This document shows positions 3,413-48,870 of a DNA stretch of 64,000 bases, one piece after another; position 1 is the stretch's first letter, and every line of letters begins with the position of its first letter. The DNA comes from an uncultured Bdellovibrionales bacterium (GTDB lineage Bacteria > Patescibacteriota > Minisyncoccia > Moranbacterales > UBA1568): assembly GCA_964580285.1 (NCBI GenBank), contig CAZOKB010000001.1, forward strand, positions 9,366 to 73,365, read 5' to 3'. The position numbers and the translations under genes were made by a program. The notes beneath the pieces are model-generated. The model did no database searches and was not told where the DNA came from. It saw only the letters and a list, made by a program, of their open reading frames with translations.

Positions 3413-4105
3413 TTGATTATGTTCTTCCATTCCGCCACTCTGATCAGTTGGATCAAAGACTATGTGATGCAAGTGCCGCTCGAGTGGTTTGTCTTCTCAG
3501 GTTCGTTTCTCGAGGAAGTCGTGAGTCCGATACCGTCGATGCTTATCACCGGCATCGCTGGATCGCTCGCGCTCATGCGGCATGAGGACTGGTGGTACCT
3601 CGCGCTTCTGGCTTTTTTGGCGAGCTCGGGAAAGACGATTGGTGCCTGGCTGTATTATTTTTTCGGCGATAAGGGAGAGGATCTCCTGATCGGTCGTGTC
3701 GGCCAGTGGTTCGGCGTTGCGCACGCGGATGTTGAGCGTGTCGGTGTCCGGTTCACGGGTCATCACTGGAAGGATGGCGGACTTCTCTTCCTGATACGCG
3801 CCGTGCCGTTCATGCCGACGACGCCGTTCTCAGTAGCATCCGGTATCTTCAAGATGAATATCCGTGTCTTCTTCGCGGCAACGCTCTTGGGATATTTCGT
3901 GAAGGATCTCGGCTATGTCCTAGCGGGATATTTCGGCATTGCGAAAATCTCTACGCTCTGGCGCGATATCGACCATATCAAATGGATGTTTGATAGTGCG
4001 GTGTGGTTAGCTATCGGTATAGCGCTGTATCTGCTTTATCGTCACCGGCATAAAGGCAAGCATGCTTGGCGTTTTCTTTGCCAGATTTTCGATCGGAAGA
4101 AATAA
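3413..4105 (+). CDS. DedA/VTT-family membrane protein
   Basis: The protein is multi-TM and carries the DedA-type motif RAVPFMPTTPFSVASG. Confidence 0.55.
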   Translation: MIMFFHSATLISWIKDYVMQVPLEWFVFSGSFLEEVVSPIPSMLITGIAGSLALMRHEDWWYLALLAFLASSGKTIGAWLYYFFGDKGEDLLIGRVGQWFGVAHADVERVGVRFTGHHWKDGGLLFLIRAVPFMPTTPFSVASGIFKMNIRVFFAATLLGYFVKDLGYVLAGYFGIAKISTLWRDIDHIKWMFDSAVWLAIGIALYLLYRHRHKGKHAWRFLCQIFDRKK

Positions 4106-4574: not shown

Positions 4575-4628
4575 AGGGAAGTGGTTTTTTAAGAAATAGA
4601 GTATCGAAAAGGATGGCTATTCTTCGAG

Positions 4629-4722
4629 GTCTCTCCTGGGCCACGAAAGCAGATTTTCCTCTCGCTATCGCCTCGGAAGTCTCGGGCGTCAAGGAAAACC
4701 TCTTTCGCGGCCCAGGAGAGTG
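4629..4722 (+). repeat. Dispersed ~90-nt hairpin element, copy 1 (core CTCGCTATCGCCTCGGAAGTCTCGGGC flanked by a ~29-bp imperfect inverted repeat)
   Basis: The left arm ctctcctgggccacgaaagcagattttcc pairs with the right arm ggaaaacctctttcgcggcccaggagag. Copies 1, 3 and 5 (4629-4722, 14695-14786, 46193-46282) share the core in this orientation. Copies 2 and 4 (13273-13360, 31095-31160) carry its reverse complement. Confidence 0.8.
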
Positions 4723-4906
4723 CGTATTATCTAGGTTAGTATTCAGGAAAATTTACTTTCGTAGACTGATAGAAACCGATTAACACCCCTAATCTTTTCC
4801 AGTATAGCAAATCGGCATCGGCAAATGTGATGGTGTGCTACGATAGGAGCATTGACGCTTCAGGGGAAGCCCTCTAGACTGTCTCTTTCAGATACATACA
4901 TAATAT

Positions 4907-9309: not shown

Positions 9310-9448
9310 CAATAACAGAACGATATGCTAGGCTAAGAAGATTTCTTTTTCTGTATCCAGGAAGCCTCTCTTTATTTCCAGTTCTGAACCGAGAGTGAAG
9401 AAGCAAGGTTTTTTTGGAAGAAGTATTCATATTATTGTTCTCACGGCC

Positions 9449-12016
9449 ATGACCACCAAGTCGAAAATCAAGAAAACAGAAGCGAGTACGCCTTCCGAAT
9501 GGATTGAGGTGCGGGGTGCGTGTACGCATAACCTCAAGAATATCGATGTCGATATGCCACGGAACCGGATGGTGGTCTTGACCGGGCTTTCCGGGTCAGG
9601 CAAGTCATCACTTGCGTTCGACACTATTTTTGCCGAGGGGCAGCGGCGTTACGTGGAATCTTTGTCCGCGTATGCGCGCCAATTCTTGAATACGATGCAG
9701 AAGCCGGATGTGGATGAGATCCGTGGTCTTTCGCCAGCTATTTCCATTGATCAGAAATCGGCGAGCCGTAATCCGCGTTCCACCGTGGCGACGGTTACGG
9801 AAATCTATGACTATCTCCGGGTGCTCTTTGCGCGACTCGGTCGGCCGCACTGCCTCACCTGTGATCGCGAGATCAAGAAGCTTTCGTCCGAAGAGATGCT
9901 GGAATTGGTCCGTGAGCGAGTAAAGAAAGCGAAACAATCAGGAAATCTCATTATTACCGCTCCGGTGGTTCGCGGGCGCAAAGGGGAGTACTATCAGCTG
10001 CTCTATAACGCTCTCAATAAGGGATTCTCAGAAATTTTTCTTGATGGGAAACGGCACAGTTTACGAGAACAAGTTCTTCTCTCAAAACACAAGAAGCATG
10101 ATATCGATCTTATTGTCGACGATATTCCTTTGCATGAGTTTGCTCAGTTTCCACAGACTTCAGAGGAACGGTTGTCAGAGGCCGTTGAGCGAGCGCTCGT
10201 AGAAAGCGATGGACTCGTGAAGGTGATGCTGGATGGAGAGGCAGTGATCCTTTCAGCGCGTTTCTCGTGTCCGTATGATGGCTTCTCGTATCCGGAAGTC
10301 GAGCCGCGGCTTTTTTCTTTCAATTCACCCTATGGTGCCTGTCAGGCCTGCAATGGTCTTGGGACAAAGCATTTTTTCGGTGACGAACTGTGCGAAGTGT
10401 GCCATGGTACCCGGTTGCGCGAAGAAGCGCTGCATATTTTGGTAGGTGGCAAAAATATCGTTGAAATTGTAGCGTTAACCACCCGTGAGGCCCAAGCTTT
10501 TTTTGAAGCGCTCGCATTGACCCCGCGTGAACAGCAGATCGCTTCGGTCGTGCGACGGGAGATTGGTGGTCGGCTCCAGTTTTTGCTCAATGTCGGTTTG
10601 GATTATCTCACCCTGGATCGGCGCGCCAATACGCTCTCCGGCGGCGAAGCGCAGCGTATTCGTCTGGCATCCCAGTTGGGGAGCCAGTTAGTCGGAGCGC
10701 TCTATGTGCTCGATGAACCGACGATCGGTCTGCACAGCCGAGACAATGATCGTCTTATTGAGACCTTGAAAAACCTCCGAGCACTCGGGAATACCATCCT
10801 TATCGTTGAGCATGATGAGGATACCATTTATGCGAGTGACTATATTGTGGATATCGGTCCGGGAGCTGGAGTGCACGGCGGAGAAGTGGTGGTGTCGGGG
10901 TTTTTGGAAGACCTTTTGATGGCGAAAAAAAATACTTCGGGGTCATTAACACTCGCCTACTTGCGTGGTGAAGAAAAAATACCCGTTCCGAAAATCCGTC
11001 GGCATAAGGATAAAGGCTCGCTCAAGGTGCGAGGTGCCCGGCTTTTCAATATCAAGGATCTGAATGTTGATGTGCCGCTGGGGCGCTTTATCTCCGTGAC
11101 TGGCGTTTCGGGATCGGGTAAGTCTACCTTTCTTTACGATATTCTGCATAAGAATCTGCAGGCCCGCTTTGATCGCCGCTACAAATCGAACGAAGTCTTT
11201 CATTGCAAGAGTTTTTCGGGCAGTGAATATCTTTCACGTGCAGTCATGATTGATCAGTCACCGATCGGGCGCACGCCGCGTTCTAATCCGGCGACCTATA
11301 CTGGAGCCTGGACGCATGTGCGGGACCTCTTTGCTTCGACGGAAGAGGCGCGGGTACGGGGCTGGAAGAGCGGCCGGTTTTCTTTCAATCGTCCTGGTGG
11401 ACGATGCGAAACGTGTGAGGGGAATGGTTTCATCGCGGTGGAGATGCACTTCTTGCCGACGGTGTATGTACCCTGCGATGTCTGTGATGGCAAACGCTTC
11501 ACGAAAGAGACACTCGAAGTGAAGTACAAGCATAAAACTATCCATGAGGTGCTCGAGATGACAATTGAAGAAGCTCATGCATTCTTCTACGAGATTCCGG
11601 CGATTGCGGATCGGCTCAAAACGCTCAACGAAGTCGGGCTCGGTTACTTGAAGCTTGGTCAATCAGCAACGACACTTTCTGGTGGCGAGGCTCAGCGGGT
11701 GAAAATCGCTTCCGAACTCTATCGACCGCATGTGGAACGAACCATCTATCTGCTTGATGAGCCGACCATTGGTCTGCACTATGCTGACGTGAAAAAGCTG
11801 ATCGAGATCCTGGACCGGTTGGTCGATAAGGGGAATACGGTGATGACGATTGAGCATAATTTGGATTTCATCAAATCTTCCGACTATGTCATTGATATCG
11901 GTCCTGAGGGTGGATCGGGCGGAGGGAAAATCGTGGCCAGCGGCACGCCGGAAGAAGTCGCTAAGGTAATCGAATCGTATACGGGGCATTATTTGAAGAA
12001 AGTCTTACGGGCTTAA
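9449..12016 (+). CDS. uvrA: Excinuclease ABC subunit A (shorter paralog, ~855 aa)
   Basis: Two ABC ATPase modules are present ([22 protein letters not shown] x2, GVSGSGKST) with zinc-finger CxxC pairs. The start is set at MTTKSK. The supplied ORF extends to 9395 with an unlikely leader. Confidence 0.9.
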
Positions 12017-13243: not shown

Positions 13244-13272
13244 AAGATGTTTTTTATACACAAGACCTCGAA

Positions 13273-13360
13273 GATCTCCGGGGAGCACAAGGGTTTTTCC
13301 TGATGCCCGAGACTTCCGAGGCGATAGCAAGGGAAAAATTGCTTGTGTTCCACGGAGAAC
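13273..13360 (-). repeat. Dispersed hairpin element, copy 2 (reverse orientation)
   Basis: The core is GCCCGAGACTTCCGAGGCGATAGC. The arms tctccggggagcacaagggtttttcc and gggaaaaattgcttgtgttccacggaga are mutually complementary. Confidence 0.8.
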
Positions 13361-13384
13361 TATAACCCAGGAGGTGTAACAAAG

Positions 13385-13393
13385 TGGTATACT
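13385..13393 (+). promoter_or_regulatory. Extended -10 element TGgTATACT
   Basis: The sequence agTGgTATACTgag lies about 30 nt upstream of the ATG at 13423. Confidence 0.35.
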
Positions 13394-13422
13394 GAGTATG
13401 TATTATCCTTCATACCAAAACT

Positions 13423-14652
13423 ATGTGGTCATGGCTGCAGGGAAAGACGAATGAGGCTCCGAAGAGTGGAGCGGGACATGAAGAGGTCAGTGAGAAACGG
13501 ACGACCAAGGTCGGCTATCTCCTCCTGTTTTTCATGGGGCTCTTCATCGTGATCATCGGGCAGACGATCTTTAGTGATATCGGCCGGATACCGAATCAAC
13601 CAGAAGGCCTCTCTTCATGTTCGCGAGAATTTGCTGCATTACTGGATTCTCGCTGGGTCGATGCGCCGATTACACATACGGATGTCTACGCGACTGGATA
13701 CGATGAGATAAGAGACACCTACCAGGTGGATGATTTGACGAAGCAGCAGTGCCGGTTTAGCCGATACGAAGAAGCATCGGGTGCTGCCGCCACCTTGCGG
13801 GCCGCCTACCCGGACCTCAAGCGGTACTACGCGCTCGAGGATCCGATTAATCGGGTAGAAAGAGATCTGAATACTCTCAAACCAGAAAGGACTCTAAAAC
13901 AGGAAGCATACGATATCAGTTTGCAGGAGCGTCAGGCGGGTATTCCGACGCCGGTGATGGATTCGGAGCAGGCGGGGAGTTCCCTTAAGACGGATACGCA
14001 AGCCGTCATGAGGCTCGAGTCGGAGAGAAAGGCTCTGTTGTCCGAGCGGGCAGCTATCTTGGATGCGATCAGAGGCACCGCAAGCGGTTTTGAGACTGAA
14101 CGGCAGCGGGCGAAAGAGCTCTATCTATCAGCTTACAACTGGTATCGCATCAAGGTCTTCCTTCTCTCATTGCTTTTCGTTCTGCCGTTGTTCCTGTATG
14201 CGCTCAGGCGGTATTTTTCTTGGAAGCGCGAGGATAGCCCATATACTATCATCGTCGGCGCACTGCTTGGCGCTTTCTCAGTACTCTTGTTGCAGGTCGT
14301 TGGCATGTTCCTCTATGAGATCATTCCGCGTCGGATTATCCAATTGCTGATCGAGTTTTTCACGCAGTTTGCATTTCTGCGCTACGTGCTGTATTACGGA
14401 TCGGTGCTGCTGGTGATCGTCTTGTTCGGTGGCATCGTGTACTATATCCAGAAGACGGTCTTCAGCCGGGAGGCGGTCGCGCTCAGGTCTCTCAAGGATC
14501 GCAAGTGTCCGATCTGTTCCTTCTCAATCGACCTCTCCATGAAGCACTGTCCGAAATGTGGGCACCGGCTACAGTCCGAGTGCGCGAGCTGTCACGGAAT
14601 GCGCTTCGAGGACCTGCCGGTGTGTCATCAGTGTGGTGCGCGCCGGGGATAG
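13423..14652 (+). CDS. Hypothetical membrane protein with a C-terminal double zinc ribbon
   Basis: An N-terminal TM helix is followed by a coiled-coil region and then 3 TM helices. The C-terminus reads CPICS...CPKCGH...CASCHG...CHQCG. Confidence 0.55.
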   Translation: MWSWLQGKTNEAPKSGAGHEEVSEKRTTKVGYLLLFFMGLFIVIIGQTIFSDIGRIPNQPEGLSSCSREFAALLDSRWVDAPITHTDVYATGYDEIRDTYQVDDLTKQQCRFSRYEEASGAAATLRAAYPDLKRYYALEDPINRVERDLNTLKPERTLKQEAYDISLQERQAGIPTPVMDSEQAGSSLKTDTQAVMRLESERKALLSERAAILDAIRGTASGFETERQRAKELYLSAYNWYRIKVFLLSLLFVLPLFLYALRRYFSWKREDSPYTIIVGALLGAFSVLLLQVVGMFLYEIIPRRIIQLLIEFFTQFAFLRYVLYYGSVLLVIVLFGGIVYYIQKTVFSREAVALRSLKDRKCPICSFSIDLSMKHCPKCGHRLQSECASCHGMRFEDLPVCHQCGARRG

Positions 14653-14694
14653 TCTGTTGCCAAGGAACGTTCGGAATGAGTGTGTCTAATGTAT

Positions 14695-14786
14695 CGTCTC
14701 TCCGAGCCACGAAAGAAATTTCCCCCTTGCTATCGCCTCGGAAGTCTCGGGCATCGGGGAAAACTTCTTTCGCGTCCCGGGAGACG
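14695..14786 (+). repeat. Dispersed hairpin element, copy 3
   Basis: The core is CTTGCTATCGCCTCGGAAGTCTCGGGC. The arm cgtctctccgagccacgaaagaaatttccc pairs with ggggaaaacttctttcgcgtcccgggagacg. Confidence 0.8.
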
Positions 14787-14910
14787 ATTGACCCAGGAGA
14801 GATCTCGATGAATAAAATAATCTTTTTCATATCCGGGGGGCGTTCTAAGAGGATATCGAAAAAAGAAAAAGGACAACGGTGAGGTTGTCCTGGGTTGGGG
14901 GGGGCGGAGA

Positions 14911-17140: not shown

Positions 17141-19948
17141 ATGCCAGAAAAAAAACCGGTGATCGAAGTGCGGGGGGCGCGGGTGAATAACCTGAAGAAT
17201 GTAAGCGTCGATATTCCACGCAATGCGCTCGTGGTGGTGACGGGTCTTTCCGGATCCGGAAAATCCTCCTTGGCTTTTGATGTTATTTTTGCGGAAGCGA
17301 ATCGGCGCTATGTCGAATCGCTTTCTTCGTATGCCAGAAATTTTCTCGAAGGGTTCGAGAAGCCGGATGTTGATGCTATCAACAATCTTTCACCAGCAAT
17401 TTCTATTGATCAGAAAAGCGTGTCACGCAGTCCGCGTTCGACAGTGGGGACCATGACCGAAGTGTATGATTTTCTTCGGGTACTTTTTGCAAAAGCTGGA
17501 ACACCCCATTGCCCTGTCTGTGGAAAAATGCTTGCGCGCATGACGGTACGCCAGGTGATGGACGAGCTCTTGCTGCTCCCGGATCGTATGGGCATAGCTA
17601 TTTTGGCTCACAGTAATCAGACTGATGGGAAATCAGAACGGGCAGCGTTAGAGATGATTGATCACTGGGGATATGTGCGAGTGCGCCGAGAAGGGGAGAT
17701 TATGCCCATTGCGGATGCCTTGGCTTCCGCCTCTGCTTCTGAAGAGAAATCTCTTGATGTGGTGATCGACCGGATCGTGATCGATCAGGCTCGGCCGGAT
17801 AAGGAGCGTTTATTGGATTCTTTAGCGACAGGATTCCAGCTGGGTCAGGGAACACTCACGGTGACACTGAATGGGAGCGGTGAGGAGCGGGTGTATAACG
17901 ATGAATATCGTTGTGATGCTTGCCATATCCGCTTACCCGAGCCGACACCAAGTTCCTTCTCGTTCAATAATCCGGATGGGGCCTGTCCGAAGTGCACCGG
18001 TCTTGGGAAAACGCTGGAATTCGATCCCGAATTGATCGTGCCAAACCATAATCTTTCCTTGATGGAAGGCGCTATACGCCCGTGGAGTAAGATGAATGGG
18101 GAGCGGCAGCGCGAAAGCGGTCCGATGCAGGAGTTGGCTCAACTAGCAAAGCGTCTGCGCTTCTCTCTTTCGGTGCCGGTAAAGAAGCTTTCAGTGAAAC
18201 AGCTCAAGGCAGTGTTGTTTGGCGAGGAAGGATGGACAGAAGATGCGCGGAAGTTCCGTGGCGTGATCGCTTTTCTCGGAGAGAAGTATCGGGATACGAA
18301 ATCAGATCATTTGCGGCAAGAAATCGAGACATTCATGCAGTCGCATGTGTGTCCGGAATGTCATGGGCAACGCCTGAAAGCAGCAGCTCTTTCGGTACGG
18401 GTATTAGGATACTCAATTTTCGATTTGGCAGACATGAATGTAGAAGGTCTGATACGGAGAGCGAAAGAACTCAAAGCAAGTATTGTGAAAGCCGGTCACG
18501 AAAAGGCGGTGATTGATACTCTATTTCGTGAAATGGAGACGCGGCTTGTGGCAGTGGAGAAAGTCGGTCTTGGATACCTTTCGTTGTCGCGTGGCGCCGA
18601 TACGCTCTCTGGGGGTGAAGCGCAGCGGATCCGGCTTTCAGTGCAGATGAAATCGGGACTTTCGGGGATTATCTATGTTTTGGATGAACCCTCGGTTGGA
18701 CTGCATAGCCGGGATACGGATCGACTTATTGGAGCCTTGCTTGATCTGAAATCAGCGAACAATTCGCTCGTGGTCGTCGAACATGATGTGGCGATTATGC
18801 GTCAGGCGGATTATGTGGTGGATCTCGGTCCGGGTGCTGGTACAGAAGGTGGTGAAGTGATTTTTGCTGGAACGCCAGAAAAACTCTTGAAATCGAAGGT
18901 GCTCACGGGGGAATACCTTTCAGGAAGACGGAGGGTGTCTGAGAAGAAAAAAGCGCGCAAGTGGAATGGGGAAAGCATCACTGTTCTGGGAGCTAAAGAA
19001 CATAATCTCAAAAATATTGATGTGGATATTCCGTTAGGCATGCTCGTATCGATTGCGGGTGTTTCGGGATCAGGCAAGTCATCTTTGGTACACGATATCC
19101 TTTCGCGAGCTTTGGCGCAGCATTTTTATCATGCGAAGACTGAGCCGGGGGCCCACAAGAAAATCACTGGTCTTCAGCATATTGATAAGGTAATCACCGT
19201 GAATCAGGATCCGATCGGCCGGACGCCGCGTTCGAATGCAGCAACCTATACGGGGGTGTTCAGTCTCATTCGAGATGTGTTTGCGGCCACTCCGGAAGCC
19301 ATCAAAGAGCATTTTTCGGCGACGCATTTCAGCTTCAACATGAAGGGCGGTCGCTGTGAGGCCTGTCAGGGTGGCGGATTGCGCAAGATAGAAATGTATC
19401 TTTTACCGGATGTGTATGTGCCTTGCGAAGTATGCAACGGAACGCGCTATAATACCAAAACGCTGTCTATTGAATACCGAGGGACTAATATTTCCAGTGT
19501 TTTGCGCATGACGGTGTCTGAAGCGCGTCGTTTTTTCCTGGACCAACCGCATATAGAAGAAAAACTGCGTGTACTTGAGGAAGTAGGGTTGGGGTATCTT
19601 GTATTAGGCCAGAGTGCCACGAACCTTTCCGGAGGCGAAGCACAGCGTATTAAGCTGGCGACAGAATTGGCACGTAAATCGACAGGGAAAACATTGTATA
19701 TTTTGGATGAACCAACGATCGGGCTGCATTTCGAGGATGTGCGCCGGCTTTTGGAAGTACTGGAAGCTTTGGTGGACCGGGGGAACAGCGTTTTGGTAGT
19801 GGAGCACAATATCGATGTTATTCGGGCATCAGACTGGGTAATTGAACTCGGACCGGATAGCGGCGAGAAGGGGGGCGAACTGATTTTTTCTGGTGAGCCG
19901 ACTAAGCTCAAGGCTTGCAAGAAGAGCGCCACGGCGAAATACCTCTAG
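17141..19948 (+). CDS. uvrA: Excinuclease ABC subunit A paralog (full length, 935 aa, four N-terminal CxxC pairs)
   Basis: The motifs [22 protein letters not shown] x2 and [10 protein letters not shown] are present. The CxxC pairs are CPVC, CDAC, CPKC and CPEC, with CEAC/CEVC later. Confidence 0.9.
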
Positions 19949-30984: not shown

Positions 30985-31094
30985 GTGGGAATATCGAGTA
31001 GAGAATATTGAATGTTGAATAGGGAAGAGAATATAGGTTTTTCTGGCTACGAAAGAGATTTTTTCTGTTACCAAAGATGAAGGGTCTATCTGGC

Positions 31095-31160
31095 GGAGAC
31101 AGATACTTCTCCCGATGCCCGAGACTTGCCGATAGCAAGGGAAAACCTTTATTTCACCCC
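31095..31160 (-). repeat. Dispersed hairpin element, copy 4 (degenerate or partial)
   Basis: The core is GCCCGAGACTTGCCGATAGCAAGG. Stem complementarity is poorer than in the other copies. Confidence 0.6.
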
Positions 31161-31238
31161 AGCAGGCAAAAGCACAGGATGAGGGATGAATTTCCGTGTT
31201 AGTATGGAGGTGCTATGACGATGAAATCTATGAAAACA

Positions 31239-33940: not shown

Positions 33941-33981
33941 CCCGGGGCAAGGAAGTTTTTCTTGCCCCGGGTTTTTCTTTT
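33941..33981 (+). terminator. Strong rho-independent terminator
   Basis: The sequence is CCCGGGGCAAG-gaagttttt-CTTGCCCCGGG followed by TTTTTCTTTT. It forms an 11-bp perfect stem. Confidence 0.75.
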
Positions 33982-34574: not shown

Positions 34575-34770
34575 CGCAAAAGAACGATTTCCTGAATCCC
34601 CCCTAAAAGTCTATCGGGAAATTTTTTCGGACCATGTCGCTTCCGATCGGGAACCGTTTCCGGTATAAGCGCCGCAAAAAAATTTCCTGACTCCCGAGTT
34701 TACATAGGGGCACAGGGAATTTTGTCGGCGTGATACCGGAAAACAGTCGATCGGAAGTGCGGTACGAAAG
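34575..34770 (+). repeat. Imperfect tandem repeat of ~95 bp (2 units plus a partial third) with TTTCCTGA(A/C)TCCC and GGGAA-TTTT-TCGG and TCGATCGG(G)AA blocks
   Basis: Unit 1 starts at 34575, unit 2 at 34673 and a partial unit 3 at 34766. A terminator-like GGCTTTTCAAGGCCGTTTTTTT follows at about 34795-34825. Confidence 0.55.
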
Positions 34771-43017: not shown

Positions 43018-43882
43018 GCGAAGAGTGTTGATACTCGGGGCGAAGGGGATGCTGGGGCAAGAGCTCGTGCGGGTGTACCAGGAGGACGAGGCGTACGAAG
43101 TGGCGGCGTGGGATATCGAGGATATTGATGTCACGGATTTTTCTGGAGCGGAAAAGAAGATCCGGGAGTGTGATCCGGCACTCATCGTGAATGCGGTGGC
43201 GTACAATGCCGTGGATCAGTGTGAAGAAAACGAAGAGGAATACCAGAAAGCGCTTCTCTTGAATGCCGAGGTGCCAAAGTTCTTGGCTGAGTTGGCCAAG
43301 AAGATCGAGGCGGCATTCATCCACTACTCAACCGACTACGTGTTTGATGGGGAGAGTGAACAGGGATATGCGGAAGATGCTTTACCGCGGCCACTCTCGA
43401 AATACGGGATGAGTAAATGGGAAGGAGAAAAAAATGTGATTGCGGTGGGTGGCTATGTTTATGTTATCCGGCTTTCCAAGCTCTTCGGTAAGCCGGCATC
43501 ATCCGCAATCGGTAAGAAGAGTTTTTTTGAAAAGATGCTCGAGATTGCCAGAGAGAAAAAAGAAGTGACGGTAGTAGATGATGAAAAAAGTTGTTTTACC
43601 TACGCGCCGGATTTGGCGCTCGCGAGCAAGGTGCTGGAGCAGCACGTGGCGCCCTACGGCATCTACCATCTCGTCAACGAAGGAACGGTGACCTGGTATG
43701 AAGCGGCACAAGAGCTCTTCCGATTGGCCGGCGTATCAGTAGCCGTGAAGCCGGTCGCTCCCGAAGCTTTTCCTCGTCCAGCCCAGCGGCCGCGCTGCTC
43801 CGAGCTCTTGAATATGAAATTCATCCCGCTCCGCCCGTATACGGAAGCGCTCGAAGAATTTCTGAAGCAGCGGGAGGCGTGA
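43007..43882 (+). CDS. rmlD: dTDP-4-dehydrorhamnose reductase
   Basis: The motif ILGAKGMLG is present. The Y-x3-K motif appears as YGMSK. Confidence 0.85.
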   Translation: MESKRRVLILGAKGMLGQELVRVYQEDEAYEVAAWDIEDIDVTDFSGAEKKIRECDPALIVNAVAYNAVDQCEENEEEYQKALLLNAEVPKFLAELAKKIEAAFIHYSTDYVFDGESEQGYAEDALPRPLSKYGMSKWEGEKNVIAVGGYVYVIRLSKLFGKPASSAIGKKSFFEKMLEIAREKKEVTVVDDEKSCFTYAPDLALASKVLEQHVAPYGIYHLVNEGTVTWYEAAQELFRLAGVSVAVKPVAPEAFPRPAQRPRCSELLNMKFIPLRPYTEALEEFLKQREA

Positions 43883-43974
43883 TGATTTTTATGGAAATAA
43901 AACAGCCCTGGGATACCTGTGCGTGTTGCACATGGTATCCGCAGGGCGGTAGACAGCGGTAGCAGTTGGGCTGA

Positions 43975-44520
43975 TCAGTGGATCAGATGCTGCGGATTGT
44001 TGAGGCCGTAGAGGATGATTCGGCCGAGATGCGCCGGCATGTTGCCGGTCGGTGTGTCGCGCTGGACTTCTATTTTGCAGTTATCGAACCTAGAGTAGGG
44101 ATAACCACCACCTATGGTACGTACGAGAGACAAAACGTTAATCTGGTATCCATGAAGGGATTGGCTAGCGTTTTGTTCGACCAGGAATGCGAACTTGATT
44201 TCCGGTCGCAGAGTGCCTGGCATATCGACGACACAGAGTACGAGGTCGTTCGGTTGAACAGTCTTGAGTGTTTCCAAATTCTGTGCCTGATAGGAGACCG
44301 GCGCTGATGTCGCGTTGGGCTGCGATGCCCAATTGATAGCAGCGATGATGATCATTGCTGCTATGGCTACGCCGATGACGGCGAGTGGTATGAGGTATGG
44401 CAACAGTGAGTCAGGCTTCTTGATAAACATGAGCATCTCCTTCAGGTAATTGTGGAATGACTCAGTGATTTTTCCAGACAACCTTGATTGCTGGGAAGAT
44501 GAAACCGCACGTAAACGCAA
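43975..44520 (-). CDS. Hypothetical membrane-anchored protein
   Basis: One TM helix is followed by an extracytoplasmic domain. The start is probably one of the internal Met codons, MLMFIKK at 44436. Confidence 0.4.
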   Translation of the reverse strand: MRLRAVSSSQQSRLSGKITESFHNYLKEMLMFIKKPDSLLPYLIPLAVIGVAIAAMIIIAAINWASQPNATSAPVSYQAQNLETLKTVQPNDLVLCVVDMPGTLRPEIKFAFLVEQNASQSLHGYQINVLSLVRTIGGGYPYSRFDNCKIEVQRDTPTGNMPAHLGRIILYGLNNPQHLIH

Positions 44521-44737
44521 CTGGTCCGCCGAGAATGAGAAACGACAGGGTGGGAACCGGGATACCTTGGCCCATGGCGATGAGCCACAGGAGACATGCT
44601 AGGAAAAACCAGTGCACAGCCGGCATGCCAGTAACTTTCAGTTGACTTTTTTCCATCGGCCGCTGAGTCAACCAGCCGAAGATGCCGATGATGAATAGGA
44701 TGGCGACGACGAAGACGGTTGCAAGCAGTGAAGACAT
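44462..44737 (-). CDS. Small hydrophobic membrane protein (91 aa)
   Basis: Three TM helices are predicted. No homology is recognised. Confidence 0.3.
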   Translation of the reverse strand: MSSLLATVFVVAILFIIGIFGWLTQRPMEKSQLKVTGMPAVHWFFLACLLWLIAMGQGIPVPTLSFLILGGPVAFTCGFIFPAIKVVWKNH

Positions 44738-44924
44738 GAGAATCTCCTCTCAGATCCGGATTGGTCCTCCGGAGTGGGTTGTTAAGCTACAAAATCTAGA
44801 TTTCTCTAGAAATTACATTTTAGCATAAATACTTGAAAAAGTCAATGGTGTAGGAAAGACGGTTTTTTGCTACCATTGAGGTGTTTTTTGGTGCGGAATT
44901 TAATCATTTCTGATGTTCTGAATT

Positions 44925-46178
44925 ATGAAGCATGATCTTCTGAAGAAGGCGGATAAGCAGGTGTATGCAGCGGTGATAGGTGAAGAAAAACGGCAGGAGG
45001 AGGGGCTTGAGATGATCGCTTCGGAGAACTATGTTTCGAAAGCGGTGCTCGAAGCGCTCGGAACGGTGTTTACGAACAAGTATTCCGAAGGCTATCCGGG
45101 ACGGCGCTACTATGGTGGACAAGAATATACAGATGTTGTTGAGACCTTGGCGATTGAGCGAGTGAAGAAACTCTTTGGAGCCGAACATGCTAATGCCCAG
45201 CCACACTCTGGTGCCCAAGCTAACTTAGCGGTGTACGCAGCGCTCTTGGAACCGGGAGATACGGTGCTTGGTATGGATCTTTCCCATGGTGGGCACTTGA
45301 CCCACGGGCATCCGGTGACACTGCCGGCCAAGGTGTATAATTTTGTCCGCTACAAAACAGAACCGGATGGCACGATCGATTATAAGAAACTCGAGGCGTT
45401 AGCTAAAGAGGTGAAGCCAAAGCTGATGCTGGCGGGTTTCTCTTCCTATACTCGGCAAATTGATTATGAAAAATTCGTGAAGATTGCCAAGAAGGTGAAG
45501 GCGCTCACCATGATGGACATGGCGCATATTGCCGGTCTCGTAGCCGGAAAAGCATTGCCAAACCCAGTCGAATACTTTGATGTTGTCACAGCGACAACGC
45601 ATAAGACTTTACGTGGACCACGGGGAGGGCTCATTCTCTGTCGCGAAAAATACGCAAGCGCAATCAATAAGGCGGTGTTTCCGGGAACACAGGGTGGGCC
45701 GCATATGCACGTGGTGGCTGCTAAGGCAGTAGCCTTTGGGGAAGCTCTGAAGCCAGACTTTAAGAAGTATGCCAAGCAGATTCTCAAGAATGCGAAAGTG
45801 CTCGAGAAGGAATTAACTAAGGCGGGAGCGCAGATCTTGTTTGGTGGAACAGAAAACCATATGCTGGTGATCGACACGGTGGCGAGTTACGGTCTTTCTG
45901 GGAAAGAAGCAGAACACCGGCTGGATGCGATCGGTATCACCGTGAACAAGAATGTGATTCCGGATGATCCGCGCGGACCACTCGATCCATCGGGACTACG
46001 GATTGGTGTGCCGGCGATCACGACGCGCGGAATGAAAGAAGCTGAGACTCGATTGATTGCTCGTGCAATAGCGCGTATGTTGCAGGTATCGGCGGATGAC
46101 AAGGAATATAAGCGGCTCTGCACGGCGCTCCGCAAGGAAATCATGCAACTGTGCAAGCAGTTCCCATTGTATAAGTGA
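44925..46178 (+). CDS. glyA: Serine hydroxymethyltransferase
   Basis: The PLP-Lys region TTHKTLRGPRGG and the typical length confirm the call. Confidence 0.95.
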   Translation: MKHDLLKKADKQVYAAVIGEEKRQEEGLEMIASENYVSKAVLEALGTVFTNKYSEGYPGRRYYGGQEYTDVVETLAIERVKKLFGAEHANAQPHSGAQANLAVYAALLEPGDTVLGMDLSHGGHLTHGHPVTLPAKVYNFVRYKTEPDGTIDYKKLEALAKEVKPKLMLAGFSSYTRQIDYEKFVKIAKKVKALTMMDMAHIAGLVAGKALPNPVEYFDVVTATTHKTLRGPRGGLILCREKYASAINKAVFPGTQGGPHMHVVAAKAVAFGEALKPDFKKYAKQILKNAKVLEKELTKAGAQILFGGTENHMLVIDTVASYGLSGKEAEHRLDAIGITVNKNVIPDDPRGPLDPSGLRIGVPAITTRGMKEAETRLIARAIARMLQVSADDKEYKRLCTALRKEIMQLCKQFPLYK

Positions 46179-46192
46179 ACATTTTTCTCGGG

Positions 46193-46282
46193 GGTTTTTG
46201 GGTTACGAAGGCAGATTTTCCCCTCGCTATCGCCTCGGAAGTCTCGGGCAGCAGGGAAAACCTCTTTCGCAACCCAAAAGCA
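46193..46282 (+). repeat. Dispersed hairpin element, copy 5
   Basis: The core is CTCGCTATCGCCTCGGAAGTCTCGGGC. The arm tttttgggttacgaaggcagattttccc pairs with gggaaaacctctttcgcaacccaaaag. Relative to copy 1 there is a compensatory CC:GG to TT:AA change. Confidence 0.8.
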
Positions 46283-47165: not shown

Positions 47166-47241
47166 AGGTGAACTCAAAAAAAGAAAGGGCCCGGAACAAT
47201 ATGCTTGTTTCGGGCCTTTGTTTTGCGCGCATGCGGATTAC

Positions 47242-48764: not shown

Positions 48765-48870
48765 ATGATCAGGATACAACAAAAATAAATAGCAAAAGGG
48801 AGGGATGCAGATCAGTCCTTCCTTTTGTTAAAAGAGAGTTTATCGGACTATTCGTGTTGATGCTGCTGCT

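Follow-up and report, generated by a model that had tools for sequence, protein, structure and literature searches.

The 64 kb stretch of DNA analysed here (the window), from a Moraniibacteriota (CPR) bacterium with a tiny genome, carries several copies of a long hairpin element whose family, as found in our genome and metagenome searches, is restricted to a clade of Moraniibacteriota (CPR). The unit is ~95-105 bp long and consists of a 29-32-bp imperfect stem, whose sequence is variable but whose arms stay complementary, capped by an almost invariant 30-nt head. A preliminary description had presented it as a five-copy element, which is true of the window, but the family as a whole comprises dozens of copies per genome, with several sister types and with nested and tandem clusters. 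This repeat family is undescribed. It matches no Rfam family, and REPs, REPINs and MITEs are set apart from it by their described features. Our tentative reading, which we rate as falling a little short of probable, is that of an orphan REP/BIME-like palindromic element whose conserved tip is a protein recognition site and which is used single-stranded from one strand.

The core of the element, CTYGCTATCGCCTCGGAAGTCTCGGGC, is present four times in the window with at most one mismatch, at 4661-4687 (+), 13305-13331 (-), 14726-14752 (+) and 46223-46249 (+), and has no match in shuffled window sequence. Five copies with a ~27-nt core had been listed previously; these four are intact, but the fifth is decayed and its core has suffered a 4-nt deletion. 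The core had also been written on the strand opposite to the one that bears the G·U signature of the long stem (see below), and we refer to this complementary, better-folding strand as the F strand. The intact hairpins span 88-96 nt, with stems of 29-32 bp, folding energies of -33 to -60 kcal/mol and z-scores of -3.2 to -7.7. Copy 1 (4631-4720, F strand minus, 30-nt tip at 4661-4690) matches the core exactly, folds at -60.3 kcal/mol on the minus strand and -52.7 kcal/mol on the plus strand and scores 110.5 bits against the covariance model described below. Copy 2 (13272-13361, F strand plus; -42.4 kcal/mol plus, -33.0 kcal/mol minus; 91.1 bits) begins 29 nt past the stop codon of the YgjP-like gene (13243), copy 3 (14693-14788, F strand minus; -56.6 kcal/mol minus, -43.1 kcal/mol plus; 87.4 bits) lies immediately past the gene for the zinc-ribbon membrane protein, and copy 5 (46194-46281, start and end approximate, minus strand; 99.1 bits), both strands of which fold about equally (-43.5 and -44.7 kcal/mol), begins 16 nt past the glyA stop codon (46178). 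Copy 4, matched by the model at 31077-31174 (+; 23.7 bits, E = 0.002), is a decayed type A remnant, as follows from the 4-nt deletion in its tip (deleted core, 31117-31136) and the loss of its fold (z = -0.47); its arms are non-complementary and many pairs are broken. A complementary inverted repeat, which had been ascribed to every copy, is therefore found in copies 1, 2, 3 and 5, but not in copy 4. The compensatory pairs quoted earlier read exactly as given, ggCCacgaaag with ctttcgcGGcc in copy 1 and ggTTacgaag with ctttcgcAAcc in copy 5.

Fragments related to the element lie next to some of these copies. A solo arm (ACGAAAGTAAATTTTCC, read from the sequence) occupies positions 4745-4767 of the minus strand, ~27 nt upstream of copy 1 on the F strand, and together with a degenerate partner at ~4602-4613 it brackets a segment of ~170 nt that the relative L018 has in inverted orientation. 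Solo arms upstream of the F strand were seen in 9 of 58 elements, copy 1 included. Directly adjoining copy 3 there is a relic 3' end of another element at 14792-14808 (CCCAGGAGAGATCTCGA; compare GGCCCAGGAGAGACCTCGA in copy 1). In addition, the 12-mer TCTTCGAGGTCT occurs exactly twice in the window (4621-4632 and 13263-13274), each time directly next to a type A hairpin and, seen in the orientation of the head, on a different side in each case. Its count alone is not significant, as 12 of 100 shuffles gave at least two matches at no more than one mismatch; the placement is the notable part.

The window copies are all intergenic, as had been reported, and like the copies in the relatives they lie among housekeeping genes, those flanking them being uvrB, genes for a YgjP-like peptidase and a zinc-ribbon membrane protein, uvrC, genes for a MiaB-like radical-SAM enzyme and exonuclease III, glyA and a gene for a nucleotidyl transferase. 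Essentially all genes of the window are on the plus strand and its GC skew is positive in every 2-kb bin (+0.10 to +0.24), a strong bias for 64 kb; the copies alternate in orientation despite this one-strand arrangement of the genes. The same region encodes two UvrA-like paralogues (9395-12016 and 17141-19948), which lie 5 kb apart in the vicinity of uvrB and uvrC and share 46% identity over 545 residues.

Searches for known families gave no match. The whole window had no Rfam match at gathering thresholds, and permissive thresholds produced, for types A, B and C, only sub-threshold matches to microRNA precursors, i.e. generic hairpins, in agreement with the initial remark that it was not recognized as a known riboswitch or RNA family.

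For a structural analysis, 45 distinct type A copies from the window and its relatives were aligned on the F strand and a covariance model was built from 43 of them. The F-strand consensus has a variable outer stem of 10-14 bp, followed by an inner stem in which GCGAAAGAGGUUUUYC pairs with GRAAAAUCUGCUUUCGY and which includes a single bulged G and two G·U pairs that are nearly fixed, and by the 30-nt head, GAUGCCCGAGACUUCCGAGGCGAUAGCAAG, with a small stem-loop of 6 bp and, unpaired, the 3' segment AUAGCRAG. On this strand the type A head reads GAUGC-CCGAGACUUCCGAGGCGAU-AGCAAG. The sister heads B, C and D share the same long stem, the GAUGC...AGCRAG frame and the U-run/A-run at the top of the stem, and differ in their tips. 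As covariance-model matches, type B (tip GAUGCACUACGCUUCCGAGCGUACAGCAAG) was recovered at 11 loci (L001 6576-6675, L004 5793-5894, L011 4440-4539, L022 1188-1283, L024 1112-1211, L006 5194-5293, L035 1574-1673, L027 859-960, L003 2704-2806, L030 66-165 and L008 2874-2975), type C (tip GAUGCCCGCGGUGCUUUAAACCGCUAGCGAG) at four loci (L020 876-980, L016 6860-6963, L013 5446-5551 and L031 5912-6015) and type D at L017 3462-3554; the same search found none of these three types in the window. Type B is flanked by A-runs and T-runs, in the manner of a bidirectional terminator. Type A hairpins are often found 10-100 nt from type B or type C hairpins, and by our own tally the two were in opposite orientation in 11 of 13 adjacent pairs.

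Extending the core search beyond the window, as had been proposed in the preliminary description, brought the material from related genomes and metagenomes to 60 distinct copies with a structural alignment. The scan of representative genomes gave 19 exact-core matches over 17 stretches of the metagenome-assembled genome (MAG) JAGOBM01 ('Candidatus Moraniibacteriota'), a species distinct from that of the window (~82% identity in shared genes), two of whose stretches, L016 and L018, are syntenic with the window. The metagenome scan added 21 more stretches, from relatives that are 75-82% identical in the flanking genes. Exact-protein look-ups placed the window species in many public samples, including JGI 3300045396 and 3300045379 and several SRA runs. 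Short-read (Logan) contigs from many samples (L045-L059, covering window positions 13304-14755 and 43425-46251) frequently end within the core of copies 2, 3 and 5, as expected for a repeat, which thus fragments the assemblies of this organism. Viral contigs searched with the core gave no match. One and the same 29-mer with an exact match to the 22-nt core was found in two Alphaproteobacteria MAGs (L009 425-453 and L012 5866-5894), within a 600-aa ORF and out of any hairpin context, and was judged coincidental.

The alignment of the 60 distinct copies, as fitted to the covariance model, bears out the claim that the varying stems covary: 94.2% of the stem cells form standard pairs, as opposed to 72% on shuffling and 41-54% on sliding the partner, 25 of the 29 long-stem pairs show double changes on both sides, and double-change cells number 473 against 132 expected, with the loop conserved. 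These counts put the complementarity of the stem beyond doubt. Compensatory changes had been taken as a sign of selection on the hairpin itself; the covariation is indeed strong, but in a DNA palindrome it does not alone separate RNA-level from DNA-level constraint and thus does not by itself show selection on an RNA.

The two strands of the element are not equivalent. The F strand is the more stable one in 40 of 45 copies, and when columns with majority G·U are left out of the same model-fitted alignment, G·U pairs on it outnumber A·C pairs ~3:1 (67:19 for the outer and 25:7 for the inner stem). Since the copies are found in both genomic orientations, a mutation bias linked to replication or transcription cannot produce this pattern, which must be tied to the element itself. 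Its source could be selection on the single-stranded F strand or an element-intrinsic difference in strand exposure. The picture of one functional strand is not clean, as rare head variants (L002 5626, L021 1110 and L008 2757) keep the small tip hairpin on the strand opposite to F and thereby favour the strand opposite to that of the long stem. A further proposal is that the hairpins are double-stranded or cruciform DNA sites for a chromosome-organizing protein, with no present mobility, for which the binding of gyrase and IHF by E. coli BIMEs offers a model. Such sites would be in keeping with positions that are stable across species, with the conserved head and the intergenic location and with a roughly even spacing of about one copy per 15-30 kb; a duplex or cruciform, however, treats both strands alike and does not predict a 3:1 excess of G·U over A·C, and the nested, half and decayed copies would be left unexplained, and we regard this proposal as very improbable.

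The position of the element relative to transcription bears on whether it acts as RNA. With crude longest-ORF gene calls, the copies mostly begin a few to ~70 nt past the stop codon of the upstream gene, and in tandem gene contexts the F strand, again by these crude calls, is sense to the flanking genes 12 times and antisense 13 times. The F strand has the folding advantage in 10 of 10 cases where it is sense and in 10 of 13 where it is antisense to the neighbouring genes; with this advantage seen in both classes, the strand bias is not imposed by host mRNAs, and a UTR or mRNA motif, one of the options raised initially, is unlikely. Type A hairpins have no U-run at either base, the hallmark of an intrinsic terminator. 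Canonical intrinsic terminators, with a GC-rich stem followed by a U-run, are found at window positions 33941-33980, 47185-47225 and 48790-48830 and also adjoin the A/B pair at the 'gene X' locus of L004/L022; as separate terminators exist even beside the elements, the latter are not simply the terminators of this genome, and a terminator role for type A was rejected on these two grounds. The broader possibility of a cis-acting RNA in host mRNAs, i.e. a 3'-end stabilizer, an RNase III intercistronic processing site or a terminator lacking a U-tract, with a protein binding the RNA tip, draws on the location of copies 2, 3 and 5 shortly past stop codons, on the retention of orthologous intergenic sites with a conserved tip, on the ability of the stem to form in either orientation and on the A-runs and T-runs around type B. 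We nonetheless consider it unlikely: the copies show no preferred direction with respect to transcription, both the G·U bias and the asymmetric 30-nt tip go with the element rather than with the transcribed strand, a U-tract is missing from type A, and canonical terminators are separate, one of them directly beside an A/B pair.

An independently transcribed family of multi-copy small structured RNAs, in which the F strand would be the RNA, G·U pairs would be tolerated and the tip would be the functional or protein-binding module, fits the strand-specific G·U bias and the better folding of one strand, the conservation of the tip sequence across species and the modular sister tips in a common frame. 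AT-rich -10-like hexamers (GATAAT, TATAAT) do precede the F strand in some copies, but no motif upstream of it is common to the copies, and the idea of an own promoter was rejected for that reason. This scenario is further burdened by the in-place flips described below, in which the flanks stay fixed and an external promoter would land on the wrong side, by the lack of a terminator past type A and of any Rfam relative, and by a copy number, 20 to 50 or more in a ~1 Mb genome, that would be unprecedented outside mobile elements; we deem it very unlikely.

Across five sets of orthologous loci, identity is 87-100% in the head and 43-90% in the arms, which nevertheless remain complementary. In part, the arms differ by single compensated substitutions, e.g. 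GCACACAAG/CUUGUGUGC versus GCUCACAAG/CUUGCGAGC at the copy-2 site; other differences represent a switch of arm subfamily between species at one locus. The orthologues of copy 2 are located at L020 725-828, L031 7345-7448, L036 108-211 and L016 6737-6839, the last one being inverted. The copy-3 site carries head A in the window, an inverted type A in L020 (2353-2456) and a type C in L031 (5912-6015). The changes of arm subfamily and the replacement of C by A at the copy-3 site indicate turnover or conversion at fixed sites.

Orientation also differs between species, for copy 1 in comparison with L018, for copy 2 with L016 and for copy 3 with L020. At the gene X locus, the A and B hairpins are each inverted in L004 relative to L022, L035 and L027, and as the order of the hairpins and the flanks are collinear, each hairpin must have been inverted on the spot. 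The case of copy 1 involves the ~170-nt segment mentioned above, which has an inverted solo arm at either end; by BLAST, L018 5848-5982 matches window 4759-4626 in inverted orientation. Flips of this kind need no transposition and can be explained by recombination or template switching between inverted arms; an attempt to locate the breakpoints within the stems failed because the arms are too symmetric. Rapid phase-variable inversion was rejected, as contigs of this species, identical to the window at 99.9-100% and drawn from many samples, are invariant and all share its orientation, including copy 5, which was covered by 100%-identical contigs.

Relatives also differ in which elements they carry. 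L016 and L020 have a type C unit next to copy 2 that the window and L031 lack; in this comparison, the one usable filled/empty pair, there was neither a clean empty site nor a clear target-site duplication, and relic sequence makes up part of the extra 220 nt. Near-identical copies at different loci, a sign of recent movement, were not seen. The idea of an ordinary MITE, i.e. a deletion derivative of an insertion sequence (IS) moved by its transposase through binding of terminal inverted repeats, owes its appeal to a dispersed intergenic unit of ~100 bp made almost wholly of inverted repeats, to the many outer ends of the form (G)TCTC...GAGA(C) and to the variable presence of copies among relatives, such as the type C unit just mentioned. 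It is hard to reconcile with the outer stem columns being the least conserved and the centre the most conserved, which is the reverse of a MITE, with no clear target-site duplication being seen at the sole usable comparison and with the lack of a parent IS or multi-copy ORF in the sequence examined, and we give it little credence; the earlier remark that conserved terminal inverted repeats are missing, unlike in a typical MITE, proved accurate.

No candidate enzyme for mobility was found. A Pfam search of the window for transposases, recombinases and integrases gave none, in accord with the preliminary description, and no transposase, RAYT or recombinase was seen in the ~0.3 Mb examined (the window, the 17 MAG stretches and the metagenome loci), nor was there any IS-like, multi-copy or paralogous ORF across the loci in this sequence. 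A tblastn search with an IS200 TnpA query, a weak probe, had a best E value of 0.5, and a scan for the HUH motif was empty. RAYT, IS200 and other transposases were set aside as partners within this sequence on the basis of these results, the lack of paralogous ORFs and the housekeeping nature of the ORFs between and beside the element pairs.

Some loci have a more complex architecture. In L024 (935-1110) and its orthologue L006 (5310-5470), a complete type A hairpin is nested between two inverted 3' half-elements (…GCGAAAGTAGATTTTTTCC-TGCTAT … TGGCAAG-GAAAAAATCTGCTTTTGC…), with the 3' arm duplicated in tandem. This nesting could result from insertion into an older element or from fold-back copying. 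The window also contains a long hairpin of another kind, 'type E' (34640-34757; -60.9 kcal/mol, z = -7.0), with a different stem (AAGCGCCGCAAAAAAAUUUCC...) and a different tip, which has a homologue in the related MAG at a different locus (L018 5165-5270), just downstream of a VTT-domain gene. The 11-mer TCGATCGGAAG is found only twice in the window (0.03 expected), at 4089-4099, in the last codons of the VTT-domain gene, and at 34747-34757, where it constitutes the outermost stem of the type E hairpin. The type E element, which in L018 adjoins that VTT-domain gene, may have carried flanking sequence with it on moving.

A REP-like element was among the original suggestions and is also our best reading. 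In the reading as a REP/BIME-like palindrome, the head would be a sequence-specific recognition site for a trans-acting protein and the element would be used in single-stranded form from one particular strand, in the simplest case as a DNA hairpin that is copied, moved or converted by a RAYT/HUH-like or other enzyme encoded elsewhere in the genome. Changes of orientation would arise through recombination or template switching between inverted arms, sometimes those of an outer, older element, and effects on host transcripts, such as those of a strong hairpin just past stop codons, would be secondary. Given the long persistence at orthologous sites and the conserved head, host-level selection, i.e. 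a cellular function, fits at least as well as a selfish element.

We also considered the hairpin as a strand-specific signal, with interchangeable 30-nt heads A-D read by dedicated proteins and a stem that need only pair, rather than as decaying selfish DNA; this is possible, if on the whole doubtful. One version that fits is a CPR-specific structured RNA or single-stranded DNA with a cellular role, selected by the host at fixed intergenic sites. Another that fits is a new class of mobile elements recognized by their loop and not by their ends, possibly copied by fold-back; such copying would explain both the half-element palindromes and the identity between the outer stem of the type E copy and the 3' end of the gene next to its relative. 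A cellular RNA role as an mRNA 3' hairpin, a processing site or a small RNA is possible and is made less likely by the random orientation and by the lack of a promoter or terminator signature.

The very small genomes of CPR bacteria are regarded as poor in repetitive and mobile DNA. A family of long hairpins that by a rough estimate takes up ~0.5-1% of the genome and is conserved across species is unexpected in such organisms and points to a partner protein. In practical terms, the repeats break short-read assemblies exactly at the core and are possible lineage markers.

Several known systems share individual traits with the family. Plastid genomes undergo small hairpin-associated 'flip-flop' inversions of the loop between inverted repeats, and the loop (sometimes more) is likewise inverted in place here between close relatives with collinear flanks; flip-flop inversion, however, is a mutational by-product of any palindrome and explains neither a multi-copy family nor a conserved head. 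The hairpin origins of HUH/Rep proteins and the attC sites of integrons are recognized as folded single-stranded DNA from one strand, with structure conserved more than stem sequence. The element resembles Rep origins in having a conserved element in the loop, but Rep origins are single-copy per replicon. Unlike it, attC sites conserve the base of the stem (R/L boxes; R''/L'', L'/R'), vary in the centre and occur in cassette arrays next to an integrase; attC was rejected because the conservation pattern is reversed, orientation is mixed among co-oriented genes and no integrase is present in the window. TIGR arrays of CPR bacteria and phages consist of units repeated in tandem, in which variable spacers of 9-12 nt separate box C/D-like motifs, and lie beside a tas (Nop-domain) gene (PMC12045711). 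A TIGR-Tas guide array was rejected, since the elements occur one or two at a time at scattered sites, have conserved loops and are neighboured by housekeeping genes.

Among bacterial MITEs with long inverted repeats, Correia/NEMIS, RUP and ERIC are similar in being intergenic foldback sequences of 100-150 bp that can form strong RNA hairpins and are patchily present among relatives. MITEs, however, have conserved terminal repeats, target-site duplications and a recognizable parent IS, none of which was found in the sequence examined.

In REPINs, Bertels and Rainey reportedly saw compensatory changes that preserve hairpin pairing and imply a single-stranded stage, and the same pairing is preserved in the present family. 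REPINs are described as REP doublets that form hairpins with two inverted arms and a short centre (PMC3337134, PMC3116915); our element is likewise a ~100-nt hairpin of this layout, non-autonomous and vertically persistent. It differs in that REPIN arms carry the conserved recognition sequence and leave the spacer free, whereas the present family conserves the spacer across species and lets the arms vary. REPs are imperfect palindromes of 20-40 nt, one end of which carries a conserved GTAG or CGTC tag, and the family shares with the REPs and BIMEs of enterobacteria and pseudomonads intergenic imperfect palindromes in many copies per genome, strand-specific stem imperfections and long persistence (PMC2817692, PMC3733652). 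As in BIMEs, several classes stand side by side in alternating orientation. REPs and BIMEs are associated with RAYTs, Y1/HUH transposases encoded in the same genome by a gene that the repeats typically flank; the ~0.3 Mb examined here showed no such gene. The stem sequence of REPs is conserved, whereas our hairpin is ~90 nt long and combines a variable stem with a conserved 30-nt loop module (PMC2817692, PMC3733652). GTAG is not fixed, the nearest candidate (alignment columns 108-111) having G in 37, T in 30, A in 24 and G in 26 of 60 copies, and these columns lie within the stem and not at an end, the ends of the element being variable. Thus, the family resembles REPs, BIMEs and REPINs in behaviour, but its size is wrong, the GTAG/CGTC tag is lacking and the conserved and variable parts are swapped. 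With a conserved loop on a freely varying stem and a wobble bias on one strand, it is the mirror image of the REP/REPIN and MITE designs and presents a clean natural case for how single-stranded hairpins get recognized.
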